This document shows, piece by piece, positions 4,121 to 49,938 of a stretch of 64,000 nt of DNA. Source of the DNA: Flavobacteriales bacterium. Lineage in GTDB: Bacteria; Bacteroidota; Bacteroidia; Flavobacteriales_F; PHOS-HE28. The DNA is taken from positions 16,703 to 80,702 of the forward strand of contig JABWBQ010000002.1 in NCBI GenBank assembly GCA_013360395.1, given 5' to 3'. The notes under the pieces are model-generated. The model had not been told where the DNA came from and made no database searches. It saw nothing but the letters and a program-made list of their open reading frames with translations. The translations under genes were made by a program, and so were the position numbers. Within the stretch, counting starts at the first letter, position 1; the number at the start of each line of letters is the position of its first letter.

Positions 4121-5365
4121 TCAATGCGGTAGAAAGAAGCCCCAGTATGCGCACCCGGCCAGTGCGGGAAGCAAGAGGGCCAGCGCCGGCAGTAGCGGCC
4201 AGCGCTTGCTCCGATACCGATGCGCTCGAAGGATCAGTACCACCGCCACCACGAGCAGGAAATACGGCAGCGAGGCCAGCGCGGGATGCACATCGCCCAG
4301 GCCGAAGTAGAAGACCTTTTCCAGCGTGAGTAGCACGGCCACCAGCCCCACCAAGGTCACCAGCCCGAGACCGGCCACCACCAACGGCCAACTCGTACGC
4401 ACCGGCAGCCTACGGATCCGACGCAGCCCGTTCATGAGCACCCACACGCCGAGGATGAGGCCCCACAGCACAGCCGCCACGCCACAGGCCATCAACCCTT
4501 GGAACAGCCAGCGTTGGTGGAAGGGCGTGCGGTACGCCTGCAGCGCTTGGTAGGCCTTGTTCGGGGGGAAGAGTGCAGGCAGGTCCAGCGTGTGCGCGCC
4601 CTTTCGCAGCTCCGCGTGCAGATCGAAGGTGATCCGGTGTTCGTAGTCGTGATAGAAAGCCAGGTGCACGAGGCCGCTGTCAGGTTCGAAGAGCGTGCTG
4701 AAGAAGGTGCCGTTCCCCAGGAACTTCCGGCAGGACTTCATGCCTTCCAACACGGACCACGCGCCGTCCACCGTAGGCGCAACACCCGCCTCGAGGAGCG
4801 TACGACCTTGTTGCAGGCGCGGAATGGGAATGGCGTCCATGTCCGTATCGCGTGCCAGCCGCCAGTTGCCCACCGCGAAGTACGGCTCGTCGCCCAGCAG
4901 GATGGTGTCGTTCTGCACCACCGCGTAACGGCCCTGCGCATCTGCCAGGAAGATCATGCTCTGATGCAGGAGGATCCGGTCATGTTTCCGCAGGAAGGCC
5001 ACCGCTTCCGGAACGTCGTGGCACTGCTCCAGCATGCGGTTGGTCAGCGCATTGAACTCAAGCGGCGGCTTGCCCGGCGAAGGCGCTACGTCCATCGGCT
5101 GGACCGTGAGCCCGTCGAACACGAGTCCGACCTCGTTCATGCCCAGTTGGTCCGTCCAGGGCAGGTATGGATGCCCCCGCCAACTGCTGAAGTACACTGC
5201 GCCGAGCCGGCCAGCCTCGCCGGGCACGAAGCGCACGCGGCCTTCCACACACCACGAGTCCTCGTTGTTGCCCACGAAGGTCCGCCCCCCATTGTGGAGG
5301 ATGAAGGCGGTGCAGGCCGGGGCCCACAACGGAAGCAGCATGGCGAGGAAGGCGAACAGGCGCAT
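4121..5365 (-). CDS. choloylglycine hydrolase / linear amide C-N hydrolase family (Ntn hydrolase) with a C-terminal polytopic membrane extension
   Basis: Signal peptide MRLFAFLAMLLPLWAPA followed by CTAFILHNGGRTFVGNNED (N-terminal Cys nucleophile plus Thr, typical of the bile salt hydrolase/penicillin V acylase family). The last ~130 aa form several hydrophobic helices. The start is set at the internal Met (ORF track starts at 5413). Confidence 0.55.
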   Translation of the reverse strand: MRLFAFLAMLLPLWAPACTAFILHNGGRTFVGNNEDSWCVEGRVRFVPGEAGRLGAVYFSSWRGHPYLPWTDQLGMNEVGLVFDGLTVQPMDVAPSPGKPPLEFNALTNRMLEQCHDVPEAVAFLRKHDRILLHQSMIFLADAQGRYAVVQNDTILLGDEPYFAVGNWRLARDTDMDAIPIPRLQQGRTLLEAGVAPTVDGAWSVLEGMKSCRKFLGNGTFFSTLFEPDSGLVHLAFYHDYEHRITFDLHAELRKGAHTLDLPALFPPNKAYQALQAYRTPFHQRWLFQGLMACGVAAVLWGLILGVWVLMNGLRRIRRLPVRTSWPLVVAGLGLVTLVGLVAVLLTLEKVFYFGLGDVHPALASLPYFLLVVAVVLILRAHRYRSKRWPLLPALALLLPALAGCAYWGFFLPH

Positions 5366-9882: not shown

Positions 9883-12800
9883 ATGTCAACAGCCGTAGCC
9901 CCTCCATACGTCCCCAAGCACAAGATCCGCGTGGTCACCGCCGCCTCGTTGTTCGATGGTCACGATGCCGCCATCAACATCATGCGGCGGATCATCCAGA
10001 GCACCGGCGCCGAGGTGATCCACCTGGGGCACGACCGCAGCGTGGAGGATGTGGTGAACACCGCGATCCAGGAGGATGCCCACGCCATTGCCATGACCAG
10101 CTACCAGGGCGGGCACGTGGAGTACTTCAAGTACATGCACGACCTGCTGAAGGAGAAGGGCGCGGGGCACATCAAGATCTTCGGCGGCGGCGGGGGTACC
10201 ATCCTGCCCAGCGAGATCGAGGAGTTGCACGCCTACGGCATCACGCGGCTGTACCACCCGGACGATGGCCGCGCCATGGGCCTGCAGGGCATGATCAACG
10301 ACATGCTGGAGCAGGCCGACTACGACCTGAGCGACCAGGTGAACGGTGAGGCGAAGAAGCTGACCCCGCAGAACTGGACGGCCATCGCCAAGCTGATCAG
10401 CACGGCGGAGAACCACCCGCAGGTGTTCGAGAAGATCGCCGACGAGGTCCACAAGAAGGCCGCGGCCAGCAAGGCGCCGGTGCTGGGCATCACGGGCACG
10501 GGCGGTGCGGGCAAGAGCAGCATGGTGGATGAGCTGATCCGTCGTTTCGTGCTGGACCAGCCCGGCAAGACCATCGGCGTGATCAGCGTGGACCCCAGCA
10601 AGCGCAAGACCGGCGGCGCGTTGCTGGGCGACCGCATCCGCATGAACAGCATCCGCGGCGAGCGGGTGTACATGCGCAGTCTCGCTACGCGGCAGAGCAA
10701 CCTCGCGCTCAGCAAGCACGTGAAGGAAGCCGTGGCCATCCTGAAGGCAGCGGGCTTCGACCTGGTGGTGCTGGAGACCAGCGGCATCGGCCAGAGCGAC
10801 ACCGAGATCCTGGATCACAGTGATGTTTCGCTCTACATCATGACGCCCGAGTTCGGTGCGGCCACGCAGCTGGAGAAGATCGACATGCTCGACTTCGCCG
10901 ACGTGGTGGCCATCAACAAGTTCGACAAGCGCGGCGCCCTCGATGCCCTGCGCGACGTGAAGAAGCAGTACAAGCGCAACCACCAACTGTGGGACGCCAA
11001 GGACGAGGACCTGCCCGTGGTGGGCACCATCGCCAGCCAGTTCAACGACCCCGGCACCAACGCCCTCTACGCGCGGCTGATGCGCAAGATCAAGGAGAAG
11101 ACCGGCATCGAGCTCGATAGCAGCTTCCACGCGCACGACGAGATGAGCGAGAAGGTGTGGATCATCCCGCCCGCCAAGAGCCGCTATCTGAGCGAGATCA
11201 GCGAGAGCAATCGGAGGTATGATGGCAAGGTGCGCAAGCAGGCGGAGATCGCGGACAAGCTGTACGGGTTGTATTCGGCTGTACTCACCTTCGGTGGCAC
11301 TGACCTTTTGGAGTCGGAAGTCCCGAGGCCCCTGAGTCACGAGTCGGGCGCGAAAGCGACTCACGACTCACGACTTACGGACTCAGTCGACTTCCTCATT
11401 CAAAGGTTCGAAGAACTGAAGAAAGACCTGGATCCCCACCTCTGGTCCATGCTCCAGAACTGGAAGGCCGAGGAGGAACGCTACTCCGGCGAGTTCTACA
11501 CCTACACCGTGCGAGGCAAGGAGATCAAGGTGCCGAACCACAGCGAGAGCCTCAGTCACCTGAAGATCCCGAAAGTCGCGCTGCCGAAGTTCCGCAGCTG
11601 GGGCGACAAGGTGCGTTGGGCCATGCAGGAGAACACGCCCGGCTTCTTCCCCTACACCGCGGGCATCTACCCGTTCAAGCGCACCGGCGAGGACCCCGCG
11701 CGGATGTTCGCCGGCGAGGGCGGCCCCGAGCGCACCAACAAGCGCTTCCACTACGTGAGCCAGGGCATGCCCGCCAAGCGCCTCAGCACCGCCTTCGACA
11801 GCGTGACGCTCTATGGCAACGACCCCGGCCGTCGTCCCGACATCTACGGCAAGGTGGGCAACAGCGGCGTGAGCATCTGCTGCCTCGACGATGCCAAGAA
11901 GCTCTACAGCGGCTTTGACCTCAGCGACCCGAAGACCTCGGTGTCCATGACCATCAACGGTCCCGCGCCCATGCTGCTCGGCTTCTTCATGAACGCGGCG
12001 ATCGACCAGAACTGTGAGAAGTACATACGGGAGCACGGGTTGGAGAAGGAGGTGGAGAAGAAGATCAAGGAGCGCTGGGAGAAGTTGGAGAAGGCGAATG
12101 GCGAATGGTCAATGGCGAATGGAGGGCGCGGCTTTTCCCATTCACCAACTCCCATTCACCATTCACCTCGACCTCGCTACCACGGAGACATACCTGCGGG
12201 GAACGATGGTCTGGGCTTGCTCCTCCTCGGCATCACCGGCGACCAGGTCCTCCCGAAAGACGTCTACGAGAAGATCAAGGCCGAAACGCTGCAACAGGTC
12301 CGCGGCACCGTGCAGGCCGACATCCTGAAGGAAGACCAGGCGCAGAACACCTGCATCTTCAGCACCGAGTTCGCGCTGCGGCTCATGGGCGACGTGCAGC
12401 AGTACTTCATCGACAAGAAAGTCCGCAACTTTTACAGCGTCAGCATCAGCGGCTACCACATCGCGGAGGCCGGCGCCAACCCCATCAGCCAGCTCGCCTT
12501 CACGCTGGCCAACGGCTTCACCTACGTGGAGTACTACCTGAGCCGCGGCATGGACATCAACGCTTTCGCGCCGAACCTCAGCTTCTTCTTCAGCAACGGC
12601 ATGGACCCCGAGTACGCCGTGATGGGCCGCGTGGCGCGCCGCCTCTGGGCCAAGGCGCTCAAGCACCGCTACGGCGCCGACGAGCGCAGCCAGATGCTGA
12701 AGTACCACATCCAGACCAGCGGCCGCAGCCTCCACGCGCAGGAGATCGACTTCAACGACATCCGCACCACGCTCCAGGCGCTGTACGCCATCTACGACAA

Positions 12801-13401
12801 CTGCAATTCGCTCCACACCAACGCCTACGACGAGGCCATCACCACGCCCACCGAGGAAAGCGTGCGCCGCGCCATGGCCATCCAGCTCATCATCAACAAG
12901 GAGCTCGGCTTGGCCAAGAACGAGAACCCGCTGCAGGGGTCATTCATCATTGAAGAGTTGACAGACCTCGTTGAGGAAGCGGTCTTGACGGAGTTCGACC
13001 GCATCACCGAGCGTGGCGGCGTGCTGGGCGCCATGGAGACCATGTACCAGCGCGGCAAGATCCAGGAGGAAAGTCTCTACTACGAAACGCTGAAGCACAC
13101 CGGCGAATACCCGATCATCGGGGTGAACACCTTCCTCAGCAGTAAAGGATCACCGACGATCCTGCCGAAGGAAGTGATCCGTGCCACGGAAGAGGAGAAG
13201 GAGGCGCAGATCGCAACGGTGGAGAACCTCAAGGCCGCCTACGCCCCCGAAGCCGCCAAGGCCCTGAAGGACCTGCAACAAGCGGCGGTCCACAACGAGA
13301 ATATGTTCGAGGTGCTGATGGAGGCGTGTAAGTATTGCTCGCTGGGGCAGCTGACTGCGGCGATGTTTGAGGTGGGGGGGCAGTACAGGAGGAATATGTA
13401 G
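9883..13401 (+). CDS. icmF: fused isobutyryl-CoA mutase (B12-binding domain + MeaB-like G-protein chaperone + mutase catalytic domain)
   Basis: N-terminal [12 protein letters not shown] (DxHxxG B12-binding motif). Central [13 protein letters not shown]-loop, [21 protein letters not shown] and the NKFD motif of MeaB/ArgK GTPases. C-terminal [20 protein letters not shown]... and [10 protein letters not shown]... of methylmalonyl-CoA-mutase-type TIM barrels. Start taken at ATG 9883 (ORF track begins at GTG 9814). Confidence 0.85.
11321..11395 (+). repeat. in-frame nested palindromic insertion inside icmF (codes [28 protein letters not shown])
   Basis: Outer arms cggaagtc/gacttcc. Inner arms gagtcacgagtcg / cgactcacgactc around gggcgcgaaagc. 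It lies in the linker after the GTPase domain and is absent from the expected mutase consensus. Confidence 0.5.
12093..12168 (+). repeat. in-frame hairpin insertion with tandem 9-mers inside icmF (codes ...[25 protein letters not shown]...)
   Basis: Left arm ggcgaatggcgaatggtcaatggcgaatggag. Right arm ctcccattcaccaactcccattcaccattcacc is its imperfect reverse complement, with loop ggcgcggcttttc. Confidence 0.55.
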
Positions 13402-14058: not shown

Positions 14059-14355
14059 ATGGTCATCGGCGTGAACACCTTCCTCCGCAGCAAAGGCTCA
14101 CCGACGATCCTGTCCGCCGTACGGCGGATGATCCGTGCCACGGAAGAAGAGAAAGAAGCGCAGATCGCGACGGTGGAGAACCTGAAAGCCGCCTACGCCC
14201 CCGAAGCCGCCAAAGCCCTGAAAGACCTGCAACAGGCGGCGGTGCGGAACGAGAATATGTCCGCGGTGCTGATGGAGGCGTGCAAGTACTGCTCGCTGGG
14301 TCAGCTTACGGCGGCGATGTTCGAAGTGGGGGGGCAGTATAGGAGGAACATGTGA
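14059..14355 (+). pseudogene. duplicated, ~10% diverged 3' fragment of icmF (last ~98 codons incl. stop; first reiteration)
   Basis: ...[17 protein letters not shown]...[73 protein letters not shown] against icmF residues ...[17 protein letters not shown]...[10 protein letters not shown]. Confidence 0.75.
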
Positions 14356-15969: not shown

Positions 15970-16060
15970 CATTGCGAGGAAGTGATCCGTGCCACCGAGG
16001 AAGAGAAGGAGCCGCAGATCGCGACGGTGGAGAACCTGAAATCCGCCTACGCCCCCGAGG
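15966..16060 (+). repeat. partial internal copy of the icmF tail (corresponds to icmF ~13170-13262: ...[25 protein letters not shown]...)
   Basis: gaagtgatccgtgccaccgaggaagagaaggagccgcagatcgcgacggtggagaacctgaaatccgcctacgcccccgag matches the icmF coding sequence and then diverges. Confidence 0.6.
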
Positions 16061-16129
16061 GGCCAAGGAACGCTTCACCTCCGGGAACGAGTGGCCGGAC
16101 TTTGGGTCGCTTACACACCGCCGTGCGGA

Positions 16130-23184: not shown

Positions 23185-23295
23185 CGTGTGGAGAGGGGGT
23201 GAGAAAGGTGAGGATGGAGAGGGAGTGGGAATGGTGAGAAAGTGAAAAGGAGAGAAGGGAGAGAAGGGAGAGAAAGGAGAGAAGAGGAAGGCGTG
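23185..23295 (+). repeat. polypurine (GA-rich) low-complexity tract
   Basis: gagagggggtgagaaaggtgaggatggagagggagtgggaatggtgagaaagtgaaaaggagagaagggagagaagggagagaaaggagagaagagg... Almost exclusively G/A on the plus strand. Intergenic. Confidence 0.6.
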
Positions 23296-23377: not shown

Positions 23378-24199
23378 ATGGAAATGGGCAAACTGACGAT
23401 AGACGCCAACACGAAGATCGCGGCGCTGCTGCGGGAGAACCCGGAGGCGCTGGAGGCCATCGTTTCGATCTCGCCGAAGTTCACCAAGCTGCGCAACCCG
23501 TTGCTGCGCAAGTTGATGGCCTCGCGCACCACCATCGCCATGGCCAGCCGGATCGGCGGATGCCGGCCGGAGGACTTTTTCGCCAAGCTGCAGCCCCTGG
23601 GCTTTCGGATCGGCAGCGATGCCGTGGGTGAGGCCCCGGCACAGGCCGCGCCGATGCCGGCCTTCATGAAGCAGCTGAAACCTTCCGATGTCGTGGACCT
23701 GGACGTGCGCCCCATCCTCGCCGGCGGTGAGGACCCCTTCAACCTGATCCTGAAGAAGGTGGGTGAGCTGCAAGCGGGACAGGCGCTGCGGATCATCAAC
23801 GACTTCGACCCCGTGCCCCTGGTGCAGCTGCTGGGCAAACGCGGCTTCGAGACCTACGGCGAGGTGCTCCAAGGCGGGGTGTTCCACACCTATTTCTTCA
23901 AGGGCGGCGCCGTGCGGATGGGCGCCACGGAGGCCGGGAAGCGCAGTGCGGACTGGGCGGAGGTGCTCCAGCGATACGAGGGAAGGATGAAGGAGATCGA
24001 CGTGCGTGACCTGGAGATGCCGCTGCCCATGCTGTCCATCCTGGAAGCGCTGGACCAGCTGCCCGCCGACCAAGCGCTGTACGTCAACCACAAGCGCATC
24101 CCCATGTTCCTGCTGCCCGAGCTGGAGGACCGGCGGTTCGACCACCGGAGCTGGGAGGTCGGGGAGGGGGACGTGAAGATGCTGATCTTCAAGGCGTAG
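23378..24199 (+). CDS. DUF1858 + DUF2249 domain protein
   Basis: N-terminal ...KIAALLRENPEALEAIVSI... (DUF1858-like). Two DUF2249-like segments (VDLDVRPILAGGEDPFNLILKKV... and IDVRDLEMPLPMLSILEAL...). Confidence 0.5.
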   Translation: MEMGKLTIDANTKIAALLRENPEALEAIVSISPKFTKLRNPLLRKLMASRTTIAMASRIGGCRPEDFFAKLQPLGFRIGSDAVGEAPAQAAPMPAFMKQLKPSDVVDLDVRPILAGGEDPFNLILKKVGELQAGQALRIINDFDPVPLVQLLGKRGFETYGEVLQGGVFHTYFFKGGAVRMGATEAGKRSADWAEVLQRYEGRMKEIDVRDLEMPLPMLSILEALDQLPADQALYVNHKRIPMFLLPELEDRRFDHRSWEVGEGDVKMLIFKA

Positions 24200-48147: not shown

Positions 48148-48272
48148 GGGGAGGGCGCGAGGGTGGGGTCTCGAACGCATGAGGGTATCCGGGGGGGAAG
48201 GGTGGGATGCCGGCCACCGTGGAAAGTGCCTTACGGAGGCGGCAACAAAGAAGCGGTCTGTTCCGCTCGGTA

Positions 48273-48340
48273 GTGAGGAAGTGAAGAAGCGAGTAAGCCA
48301 CGACCATGCTCACTTCTTCACTTTTTCACTTTTTCACTAC
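48273..48340 (+). terminator. long imperfect hairpin followed by T-runs (possible intrinsic terminator downstream of the SRAP gene)
   Basis: gtgaggaagtgaagaagcgag...gctcacttcttcactttttcactttttcac. The arms are built from tandem gtgaa(g/a)aag units, then TTTTT. Confidence 0.4.
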
Positions 48341-48402
48341 TTTCCTTCTTCGCCACCCGGATCCGCCCGTGCAGAAAGCGATCCTTTCTCACCGACTGAG
48401 TA

Positions 48403-49938
48403 ATGGCCGATGTGTGCGGCTGTTACTTTTGGACGATGCGCTTCCTCTCCGTCGTGACTTGTCTTGGTGTGCTGGCCGCACATGCCCAGGTGCAACTGCA
48501 ATGGCAACACCGCTTTGATGCTCCCAACGAGCTTACTGGTTTCGGTGACGTGGGCCTCGGGCTCGACCGCCGGGGCGATAGCCTGATGGTGGGTCACAGC
48601 TGGGAGAACTTCGCGCAGACCACCCTCTTCGCAGCCGATGACGGCCAGGTGCTGTGGACGATGGGCACCGCGGACACCGTGTACCACCTGGGTGGCCGTA
48701 GCTTCTTCGGGAACACGATCGTCAGCGGTGAACGCACGGCCTCCGGGAACGGGATCAGTGCACGCAGCTCGCTGATCGGGCTGGATGGCGTGCTCCACTG
48801 GACCGTGGACGCTGGCCTGATGAATGTGCAGCGGTTGCGGGGCCCCTTGGTGAACGCGGCAGAGGACACGGCGCACGTGCTGGCCTACGGCAGTGGGGTG
48901 CTCCACGACCTGCGCGTGGATCACATCGGAAGCGCGGGTGGTTGGTCGTACACACCGGCACATCCATGGCCAGGGTTCGAGACCTGTCTCGCCGCCGATG
49001 GGTCCGTGATCATCACGGCCATGGTCGATCTGCCCGGTGCCTTCAGCGATGTGCCGCGGCTGATGCGCTTCGATGCGGCGGGCGCGCCCACCTGGTCCAC
49101 CTGGCTGGCGGACACCACCGGCTTCGTGGTGAGCGCACCGGCCCGCACCGTGCATTGGAACGCCGACACCCTGCTCTCGGTGCACACCACCTGGCAGGGG
49201 CTCGTGCAGCTGCGCATGACCGATGCCGACGACGGCAGCGTGCTGTGGTCCTTCACCGACAGCCTCGGCCTGGTGCTGGAACTCGCCTCACTGGCCGTGG
49301 TGCCCGAGGCGCAGCGCATCCACGTGGGCTTGCACGGCGGAACGTCGATCGCCTATGCCCCCGGGGCGGGACGGCTGTGGACGGACAGCGTGAACGCGCA
49401 GGCGAACTACATGGAAGTGGCCGTGCTGGCGAACAGCGCCCACGCAGTGAGCATCGTCACCGACGACCGGCACATCGGCCAGGGCCAGGACCTGCACATC
49501 CGCCTGCTCGATCCGGCCACGGGTGCCCTGGTCGATACCGCATGGGTGAACGACACCATCGGCACGCACGACCTGTTCGAGAACGCCCTGTTGTGGGGCG
49601 ATGAACTCCATCTGCTGACCGCCGCGACCTTCGACACGGTGAGCATCCTGAACGAAAGCACCACGCTGCTGCTCTCCACCTTCAACCTCGCCACGCCCAC
49701 CGCGCTGCCCGGTCCCAAGCCATCCGCTTCCCCGCGCACGGCCGTGGTCACCCGTGGGAGCATCGAGGCCTTCCTCGCTCCGCTCCTCGCCCCGTGGACC
49801 GCGTTGGATGCCGCTGGGCGCGTGCATGCGGTGGGAAGCCCGGCGGACCTTGATGCGTGGTATGGCACGGCGCCACCGGGCACCTACCAGGTGCTGGGGG
49901 CGGGTGGCCGGTCCCGGCTGATGTTCATCCGTCCTTGA
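48403..49938 (+). CDS. secreted hypothetical protein (probable beta-propeller); paralog of 7882-9405
   Basis: Signal peptide. Shares motif order and C-terminal ...DAWYGTAPPGTYQVLGAGGRSRLMFIRP with the 7882-9405 protein. Confidence 0.6.
   Translation: MADVCGCYFWTMRFLSVVTCLGVLAAHAQVQLQWQHRFDAPNELTGFGDVGLGLDRRGDSLMVGHSWENFAQTTLFAADDGQVLWTMGTADTVYHLGGRSFFGNTIVSGERTASGNGISARSSLIGLDGVLHWTVDAGLMNVQRLRGPLVNAAEDTAHVLAYGSGVLHDLRVDHIGSAGGWSYTPAHPWPGFETCLAADGSVIITAMVDLPGAFSDVPRLMRFDAAGAPTWSTWLADTTGFVVSAPARTVHWNADTLLSVHTTWQGLVQLRMTDADDGSVLWSFTDSLGLVLELASLAVVPEAQRIHVGLHGGTSIAYAPGAGRLWTDSVNAQANYMEVAVLANSAHAVSIVTDDRHIGQGQDLHIRLLDPATGALVDTAWVNDTIGTHDLFENALLWGDELHLLTAATFDTVSILNESTTLLLSTFNLATPTALPGPKPSASPRTAVVTRGSIEAFLAPLLAPWTALDAAGRVHAVGSPADLDAWYGTAPPGTYQVLGAGGRSRLMFIRP

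Follow-up and report, generated by a model that had tools for sequence, protein, structure and literature searches.

Translated heptamer-armed hairpins at two sites of the icmF gene in a clade of Flavobacteriales

Arrays of the heptamer GGGAATC form 70-75 convergent pairs per Xanthomonas genome that are able to fold into stem-loops; at a given locus the arrays differ between closely related bacteria, and 7-11% of them are intragenic, and Nostoc has comparable arrays of GGGGA(T/C)T (Rehm et al. 2015, PMC4692102). The same paper, citing Mrazek 2007, describes an over-representation of heptamers in bacteria that slippage of the polymerase may have caused. TAACTGA heptamer arrays have been found in Beggiatoaceae, Cyanobacteria and five Bacteroidetes, alongside the cyanobacterial STRR (PMC4679880). 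Palindromic repeats of a different kind, the RPE of Rickettsia and the BRE of Bordetella, lie within genes as in-frame fusions (review: Delihas 2011, PMC3184786), and RAYT (Y1) transposases are reported to mobilise the REP and BIME palindromes (Di Nocera et al. 2013, PMC3733652). Here we describe a hairpin with tandem 7-nucleotide (nt) units that lies in frame within icmF, the gene for fused isobutyryl-CoA mutase, in 64,000 nt of DNA from a Flavobacteriales bacterium (GenBank assembly GCA_013360395.1, contig JABWBQ010000002.1; this whole stretch is called the window), and we compare it with these systems and with its counterparts in related genomes.

The icmF hairpins and the closest described systems

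The icmF gene (9883-13401, + strand) encodes 1172 amino acids (aa) with B12-binding (PF02310), MeaB-like G (PF03308) and mutase (PF01642) domains. Its product is 100% identical to P0001, a protein from a metagenome-assembled genome (MAG) annotated as 'methylmalonyl-CoA mutase family protein [Flavobacteriales bacterium]', and it matches the solved Cupriavidus (C. metallidurans) IcmF, PDB 4xc6 'Isobutyryl-CoA mutase fused', with E = 9e-95. Two hairpins lie in this gene, at sites that we call S1 and S2. The S2 hairpin occupies 75 bases (12093-12167) and is an imperfect inverted repeat with arms of 34 and 31 nt, 10 nt apart. Its 5' arm (12093-12126) consists of the units GGCGAAT, GGCGAAT, GGTCAAT and GGCGAAT followed by GGAGGG, the loop (12127-12136) is cgcggctttt, and the 3' arm (12137-12167) reads CCCATTCA, CCAACTC, CCATTCA, CCATTCA and CC. 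The element starts with GCGAATGG directly after AAG and ends with CCATTCACC directly before TCG. Each arm is translated as 11 aa, the first of them after a preceding K, and the whole is read in the IcmF open reading frame (ORF) as 24 extra low-complexity residues. The original prediction had placed the inverted repeat correctly and had its frame and translation right. Its description of the arms as tandem 9-mers was wrong, because Tandem Repeats Finder (TRF) gives a period of 7 in both arms with 4.3 copies in each (GGCGAAT at 12093-12122, CCATTCA at 12138-12167); the first two to three letters of the right arm that it quoted are also absent from the sequence, which after the loop runs from cttttc straight into ccattcacc. 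We write the unit as GGYGAAT/ATTCRCC, the arms being convergent tandem arrays, and refer to the window S2 hairpin as the GGCGAATGG hairpin. As sense RNA the region folds with -38.2 kcal/mol (12085-12174; z = -4.5), a stability reached by 0 of 200 shuffles, and the antisense strand with -54.2 kcal/mol (12080-12185; z = -6.3). An ungapped stem scan of the whole 64 kb returned this hairpin and an intergenic one at 48269-48341 as the two best; it was used in place of raw sliding-window minimum free energy, which is useless in a GC-rich window because its ranking follows GC content.

S2 had been proposed to be the second such insertion in icmF, and the first is present at 11311-11401 (+ strand), 750 nt upstream in the same gene. 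This S1 hairpin has 7-mer arms of (C/T)GAGTCG and CGACTCA, a loop containing GCGCGAAAGCG and a 28-aa translation; TRF reports CGACTCA x4.0 at 11357-11385, and the fold has -38.3 kcal/mol (z = -3.3), again with 0 of 200 shuffles as stable. S1 lies in the linker joining the G domain and the mutase domain and is hypervariable among IcmF orthologs. S2 had also been placed just before a conserved mutase motif; that motif does lie downstream, although 46 residues (~140 nt) away, so the wording was loose.

The icmF element resembles the Xanthomonas and Nostoc arrays in its tandem 7-nt units with few copies per array, in its closely opposed, stem-loop-forming arrays, and in a length and sequence that differ between close relatives at one locus. 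Those arrays, however, lie for the most part between genes, are rich in G and have been discussed in terms of G-quadruplex formation, whereas the icmF arms are translated within a conserved enzyme and show no G-quadruplex tracts, the GGCGAAT unit holding only GG runs. One dominant unit occupies hundreds of loci per genome in Xanthomonas and Nostoc, whereas here many families alternate at two orthologous sites; no dominant dispersed unit was met in the window or in 285 kb of DNA from related genomes, where arrays are nearly confined to S1 and S2. With RPE and BRE the element has in common that a small palindromic repeat sits in frame in conserved genes and is translated, and that filled and empty orthologous sites exist. 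RPE are about 105-146 bp long, follow a family consensus, are present in many copies per genome and contain no tandem 7-mers; the icmF element, at ~75 nt and with no more than two sites seen in each genome as far as its DNA was sampled, is set apart from them by size and copy number, and a relation in sequence is not expected.

REP and BIME sequences are likewise short imperfect palindromes, and recognition of a hairpin would explain replacement hairpin by hairpin. They are extragenic and 20-40 bp long, whereas the icmF element has 31-34 nt per arm, is genic and was not seen at high copy number in the DNA available. The S2 arm ends carry neither a GTAG nor a CGTC tetranucleotide, and no RAYT (Y1) gene was noted among the scanned ORFs of the window or in the gene tables of relatives. 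A MITE, or miniature transposable element with inverted repeats, is not indicated either, as no direct repeat flanks any GGCGAAT copy and the flanks differ between genomes; the entire S2 element is inverted repeat, without a core between terminal repeats. Nor does it have the form of an intrinsic terminator, since it lies inside an ORF and its stem is followed by TCGACCTCGCTACC and not by a U-run. The sole Rfam matches were a pair of generic miRNA-precursor models, scoring 28 and 22 bits where the gathering thresholds are 97 and 71. The element shares its heptamer-array architecture with the Xanthomonas type and its in-frame habit with RPE and BRE. What seems to be new is the combination of translated heptamer-armed hairpins in a conserved enzyme, two orthologous hot spots, and rapid turnover and sharing of families. 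The icmF locus unites the odd and unexplained heptamer repeats of bacteria with the in-frame palindromic repeats best known from Rickettsia.

Insertion status and hairpin families among relatives

We aligned 120 IcmF homologs, 71 from the host clade of high-GC Flavobacteriales MAGs (82-100% identity) and 49 from outside it (80% identity or less). A scan of species-representative genomes gave at least 79 distant orthologs and one clade member among the matches listed, and the clade icmF DNA, fetched protein by protein, came from 11 further clade genomes. Outside the clade, the S2 segment (KLKELWEDRG-LERPKY-QGDIPEGNDG) is exactly 26 aa long and free of extra residues in 46 of 49 proteins; of the three that deviate, two are partial sequences from the clade. 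Within the clade, S2 is extended by additional residues in 65 of 71 proteins, the segment exceeds 32 aa in 63, and the longest hairpin-type segment reaches 74 aa (48 extra residues); S1 is enlarged in 67 of 71. Clade members with an empty S2 also exist (P0049, P0050, P0066, P0068, L001 and L208). As judged from this alignment, the S2 hairpin is shown to be an insertion relative to distant orthologs, in agreement with the original prediction. Conservation in orthologs had been named as grounds for rejecting that view, and the segment is indeed conserved or even identical in several relatives; what they have in common is the element and not an ancestral protein segment. The other suspicion raised at the outset, a sequencing or assembly artefact at a tandem repeat, draws on the fact that short-read assemblies can mis-join repeats. 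It is very unlikely, to the point of being negligible, because the same 34-nt and 31-nt arms recur, always in frame, in independent ENA, NCBI and JGI assemblies from different samples and pipelines (P0001, P0002, L081, L082, L083, L084 and L207).

A segment of ~62 aa containing S2 is missing from 4xc6, whose alignment leaves S1 uncovered. An AlphaFold model of IcmF has coil with a predicted local distance difference test (pLDDT) score below 50 at residues 479-495 and 741-760, that is at both inserts, in a model that is poor overall (pLDDT 64.8) and too weak to carry weight. Because distant orthologs and 4xc6 are without the S2 insert and the model places low-pLDDT coil at both positions, S1 and S2 are dispensable loops. 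The insert peptides are unrelated between genomes yet periodic over 7 residues, examples being SHEPRAT x3, NSLIADS/ISNQES, HKPQAS/SLKLEAS, PLAAGSW/QPAASSQ and VDELRVSGLRV/QPATRQPVN.

One clade protein, P0044, has at S2 a 190-aa segment holding a DUF559 (PF04480) endonuclease domain in place of a hairpin-type insert. Other Bacteroidota likewise have this domain inserted in frame at the two IcmF sites, with P0113 and P0119 carrying it at S1. These inserts are flanked by LTPxPSPKERG... and ...PSPSERGPGGEG motifs that resemble translated inverted repeats, and a flank-like motif alone, a possible footprint of DUF559, occurs in P0065 at S2 and in P0019, P0023 and P0041 at S1. The DUF559 insert may be an in-frame mobile endonuclease cassette that exploits the same permissive loops.

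Each of 17 distinct S1 or S2 inserts from 11 clade genomes forms one long stem-loop (z -2.4 to -10.1), and the arms of the clade inserts are all period-7 arrays. Their units include GGCGAAT, GAGTGGC, CTGATTC/G, AGCCACG, AAGCCNC, AGCTCGA and CGACTCA, and at least eight unrelated sequence families occupy the two sites, scattered over the gene tree. Among 284.6 kb from 12 clade loci we counted 39 period-7 arrays, ~35 of them in icmF S1 and S2, and this DNA contained no array of three or more copies outside the two sites; the GGCGAAT element itself had no further copy in the 64-kb window or in the +/-10 kb flanks. The suggestion of a family of small hairpins in this genome is correct in part: the class is widespread, but dispersal within the genome is not borne out.

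Several alleles depart from the usual form. In L208, S1 (11496-11526) holds a one-sided tandem 8-mer, GATCAGAN x4, translated in frame and without an inverted partner; L210 (1223-1255) carries one-sided GATCAGAN x4, also in frame and without an inverted partner, in a gene resembling that of valyl-tRNA synthetase. The empty S2 of L001 contains a perfect 20-nt palindrome (5200-5219), GGGCGTGAAATTTCACGCCC, and that of L208 (around 12236-12259) has GGAGGC and GCCTCC separated by 12 nt; such palindromes could be seeds or scars of hairpins. At S2 of L207 (6539-6700) the entire right arm is tandemly duplicated and a second heptamer array of CCAGTCG-like units is nested in the loop, indicating that remodelling is ongoing. 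Distant Bacteroidota have period-7 arrays dotted over the 688 kb examined around their icmF genes, mostly at gene ends and no commoner than those of period 8-10; one of them, in Nonlabens, is at S1. Heptamer arrays directly follow the icmF stop codon in two of these distant loci (L054, 3347-3378; L063, 5366-5411), and L063 has in addition a pair of heptamer arrays upstream of icmF (1766-1924).

Beyond the clade, metagenome and viral sequences were scanned for GGYGAATGGYGAATGG, which corresponds to two GGYGAAT units, and at least 120 metagenomic contigs matched. By our estimate from the specificity of the pattern, single two-unit matches occur at about chance frequency, and only multi-unit arrays and hairpins were used. 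The metagenome matches listed include many arrays of three or more units and at least ~17 two-armed hairpins, most of them intergenic, on contigs of 39-75% GC. GGTGAAT-type hairpins lie in frame in a porphobilinogen deaminase gene (HemC; L155, 487-568) and in a fused E1 alpha/beta dehydrogenase, within its linker (L094, around 764), so that, with both IcmF sites in about a dozen genomes, the idea that such hairpins can sit inside ORFs is upheld. A one-armed GGTGAAT-type array occurs in an ORF that resembles leucyl-tRNA synthetase, a name given from its sequence (L178, around 1494); all three are low-GC (0.39-0.42) metagenomic contigs. A search with a synthetic 47-aa hairpin peptide found only 'hypothetical proteins' of 40-80 aa over intergenic hairpins in many phyla, tiny spurious ORFs in Mesorhizobium, Prosthecochloris, Chloroflexi, Chamaesiphon, Ferruginibacter and others. 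The real 30-aa segment, compared with 1.8 billion representatives, matched a single irrelevant repetitive protein, and neither peptide search revealed other host genes of the element. Annotation should allow for inserts that inflate alignment divergence and for intergenic copies that spawn tiny spurious 'hypothetical proteins'.

Translation, copying and competing explanations

The reading frame is kept in all ~70 alleles. A canonical (GGTGAAT)n arm has TGA in every unit, in frame once per three units, and the window unit at which TGA would be in frame reads GGTCAAT (TCA, 12109-12111). The same change from TGA to TCA is found, independently, in the GGTGAAT hairpin of the porphobilinogen deaminase gene. 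The presence of TCA in place of an in-frame TGA argues for translation. A comparison of the two strands in 20 hairpins, several of which are copies of one family and not independent, found the antisense strand to be more stable in 17, with a mean difference of 7.7 kcal/mol (Wilcoxon p = 5e-5). G.U pairs number 99 in the antisense and 36 in the sense strand, so mismatches in the mRNA are mostly C.A. Stop avoidance was considered as the full cause of these C.A mismatches and rejected, since restoring the three C.A positions creates no stop; nor would stops arise in a perfect hairpin whose right arm was the exact reverse complement of its left arm, and stop avoidance explains the TCA unit only. 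The bias may stem from selection that disfavours strongly folding mRNA, or from a use made of the template strand.

The evidence on copying comes from relatives whose genes have diverged while their arms have not. Gene-wide nt identity to the window, with S1 and S2 masked, is 0.884 for L081, 0.880 for L082 and 0.835 for L084, and in all three both S2 arms are identical at 65 of 65 positions; the closest relative, L205 (0.921), carries at S2 a different family, CTGATTG. The identity extends to both irregular units, GGTCAAT and CCAACTC, as well as to all three C.A mismatches, and its chance at the gene-wide divergence is 3e-4 to 8e-6. The 5' arm is identical at 34 of 34 positions in the three relatives, and a 31-nt right-arm string is exact in L081, L082, L083 and L084 and occurs twice at S2 of L207. 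Among the near-identical copies only the loop varies: aagggctctt in L081 and L082, agcggctctt in L084 and cgcggctttt in the window. The two sites also have sequence in common, the irregular unit CCAACTC being found in the S2 copies and the S1 copy of L207, and a core, GCGCG...GCGAATGCC, in the CTGATTC-family copies at S1 (L081, L083, L205) and S2 (L205). A recombination tract carrying the hairpin with its flanks was rejected as the explanation because flank identity beside the arms is no higher than gene-wide: the 100-nt flanks in L081, L082 and L084 are 71-92% identical, and the differences reach the arm ends. Identical arms in diverged genes, together with a closest relative that has another family, point to copying and replacement of a DNA element.

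We therefore favour, with confidence slightly better than even, the reading that the S2 feature is a non-functional, hairpin-dependent copy-and-replace DNA element that is tolerated in two IcmF loops. Hairpins at S1 and S2 would be repeatedly replaced or converted by DNA-level copying that acts on the hairpin itself, through template switching or gene conversion between hairpins or through a hairpin-recognising enzyme, and array length would then be reshaped by replication slippage. The element, for which our results indicate no function in IcmF, would bring the enzyme no benefit and would persist because the loops tolerate a hairpin, while selection would keep it open (the in-frame TGA changed to TCA) and weak as an mRNA structure (the sense C.A mismatches). 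Some of the evidence in favour of this explanation is weakened, and further points weigh against it. Each family is scattered and polyphyletic in a neighbour-joining tree of IcmF (S1 and S2 masked), but the tree is star-like and poorly resolved. Of 38 classifiable proteins, 18 have the same family at both sites, where 5.7 would be expected, and 0 of 20,000 permutations reach 18, an association that is inflated by shared ancestry among the proteins. No donor copy, transposase, target-site duplication or terminal signature was found in the DNA sampled. Across 285 kb of DNA from the clade, hardly any of the hairpins lie outside icmF; a freely mobile element would not be expected to behave in this way, and a function tied to the site, or evolution that is entirely local, would agree better with it. 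The AAGCCNC and AGCTCGA families are similar to palindromic codons native to the edges of the sites (GGCTTG, GAGCTCGAGGC), suggesting growth in place, and conserved stems with a variable loop are also the signature of a selected structure. A bolder form of the copying explanation, which we regard as rather improbable, would make S1 and S2 landing pads at which translatable heptamer-armed cassettes are written, exchanged between the sites and swapped between genomes by an undescribed hairpin-directed copying, possibly acting on the better-folding template strand.

Among the alternatives, two are serious rivals. One is a purely local origin, in which hairpins would grow in place from a native palindrome by slippage and fold-back template switching, with no transfer; we think it unlikely on balance. 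Quasi-palindrome correction, or template-switch mutagenesis, creates or perfects inverted repeats, and slipped-strand mispairing expands or contracts tandem units. Such replication errors fit the variable unit numbers and the duplicated arm and second heptamer array of L207, the empty sites already hold small palindromes (GGGCGTGAAATTTCACGCCC in L001, GGAGGC...GCCTCC in L208), the right-hand native codons (GGCTTG, GAGCTCGAGGC) join the stems in the AAGCC and AGCTCGA families, and slippage is the possible cause named for the over-representation of bacterial heptamers (PMC4692102, citing Mrazek 2007). They leave unexplained, however, that arms including irregular units and C.A mismatches are identical at 12-17% divergence while the closest relative has another family, and that the same idiosyncratic sequence with its irregular units stands at both sites; the GGCGAAT and CTGATTC units are moreover unlike the native flanks. 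The other serious rival, to which we give a lower probability again, is that icmF needs a hairpin at both positions, on the template or antisense strand or as DNA, and that any folding sequence will serve, for example in replication, recombination, pausing or antisense RNA. Hairpins drawn from the at least eight families are retained at both sites in about 90% of the clade; the enrichment in icmF over its flanks is strong, the stems are invariant with a variable loop, and the antisense strand is the more stable. Yet the hairpin is absent in several clade members and in all distant orthologs of an otherwise highly conserved gene, its length, its place in the loop and its stability vary widely, S1 of L208 has only a one-sided array, Rfam gave no match, and similar hairpins lie in other genes and between genes. 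In addition, conservation is no lower at unpaired than at paired positions, a sign of recent origin and not of structural selection.

The remaining explanations appear far less probable than these. Heptanucleotide simple sequence repeats are treated as phase-variation candidates in Haemophilus influenzae (PMC2651432), and at icmF the unit is within an ORF and not a multiple of three, so that gain or loss of one 7-nt unit would shift the frame and turn IcmF off, or at S1 end the protein behind its G domain; neither arm has a stop in any frame, and a shift would be read through to the end of the array. A phase-variation device is nevertheless very doubtful, as the tracts are short (only about 4 units per arm), ~70 of ~70 alleles keep the frame, the enzyme is a metabolic one of the cytosol and the inverted arrangement would be unnecessary. 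We would be equally surprised if selection acted on the protein, with the inserts as functional flexible linkers or hypervariable surface loops and their palindromy incidental. The sites do lie in a linker and a surface loop, and the low-complexity peptides are rich in Ser, Pro, Ala and Gly, but the constraint is on the DNA, as seen in the reverse-complement arms and in the lack of any synonymous difference in 21 codons of genes that have diverged by 16%; the peptides of one family bear no relation to those of another, with no conserved motif seen that is common to all families, and empty alleles exist.

Irrespective of mechanism, ~70 natural alleles show differing hairpins replacing each other at two codon positions of a well-understood, structurally solved enzyme. 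This makes icmF a tractable system for the origin and movement of hairpins, for their absorption into an ORF through purging of stops and weakening of the mRNA hairpin, and for the tolerance of foreign sequence by surface loops.

Other repeats and icmF fragments in the window

The intergenic hairpin at 48269-48341, the top hairpin of the ungapped scan, lies upstream of an ORF starting at 48403. It has arms of 8-nt units, GTGAAGAA and TCACTTCT, with a TRF period of 8 and 5.2 copies, and as + strand it folds with z = -4.0. The likeness to S2 that had been proposed for it holds for the architecture; its 8-nt units share zero sequence with the icmF hairpins. A further set of repeats, purine-rich and intergenic, occupies 23189-23284, where a 26-mer x1.9 is followed by GGAGAGAAG x4, upstream of a DUF1858/DUF2249 ORF starting at 23378.

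Downstream of icmF the window contains two extra partial copies of the 3' end of the gene, both on the + strand: one at 14062-14352 (aa 1078-1172, 89% identity) and a second at 15976-16068 (aa 1096-1126, 81% identity), separated by a DUF4160/DUF2442 gene pair and a Fic/DOC gene. Relatives have ORFs for mutase fragments a few kb downstream (L081, 5413-5760; L083, 15616-16731; L205, 17918-19407; L206, 18806-20008), with variable restriction-modification, HNH and toxin genes between icmF and the fragments. From its sequence, the icmF 3' end looks like a site of serial integration of small islands, each carrying a replacement end.

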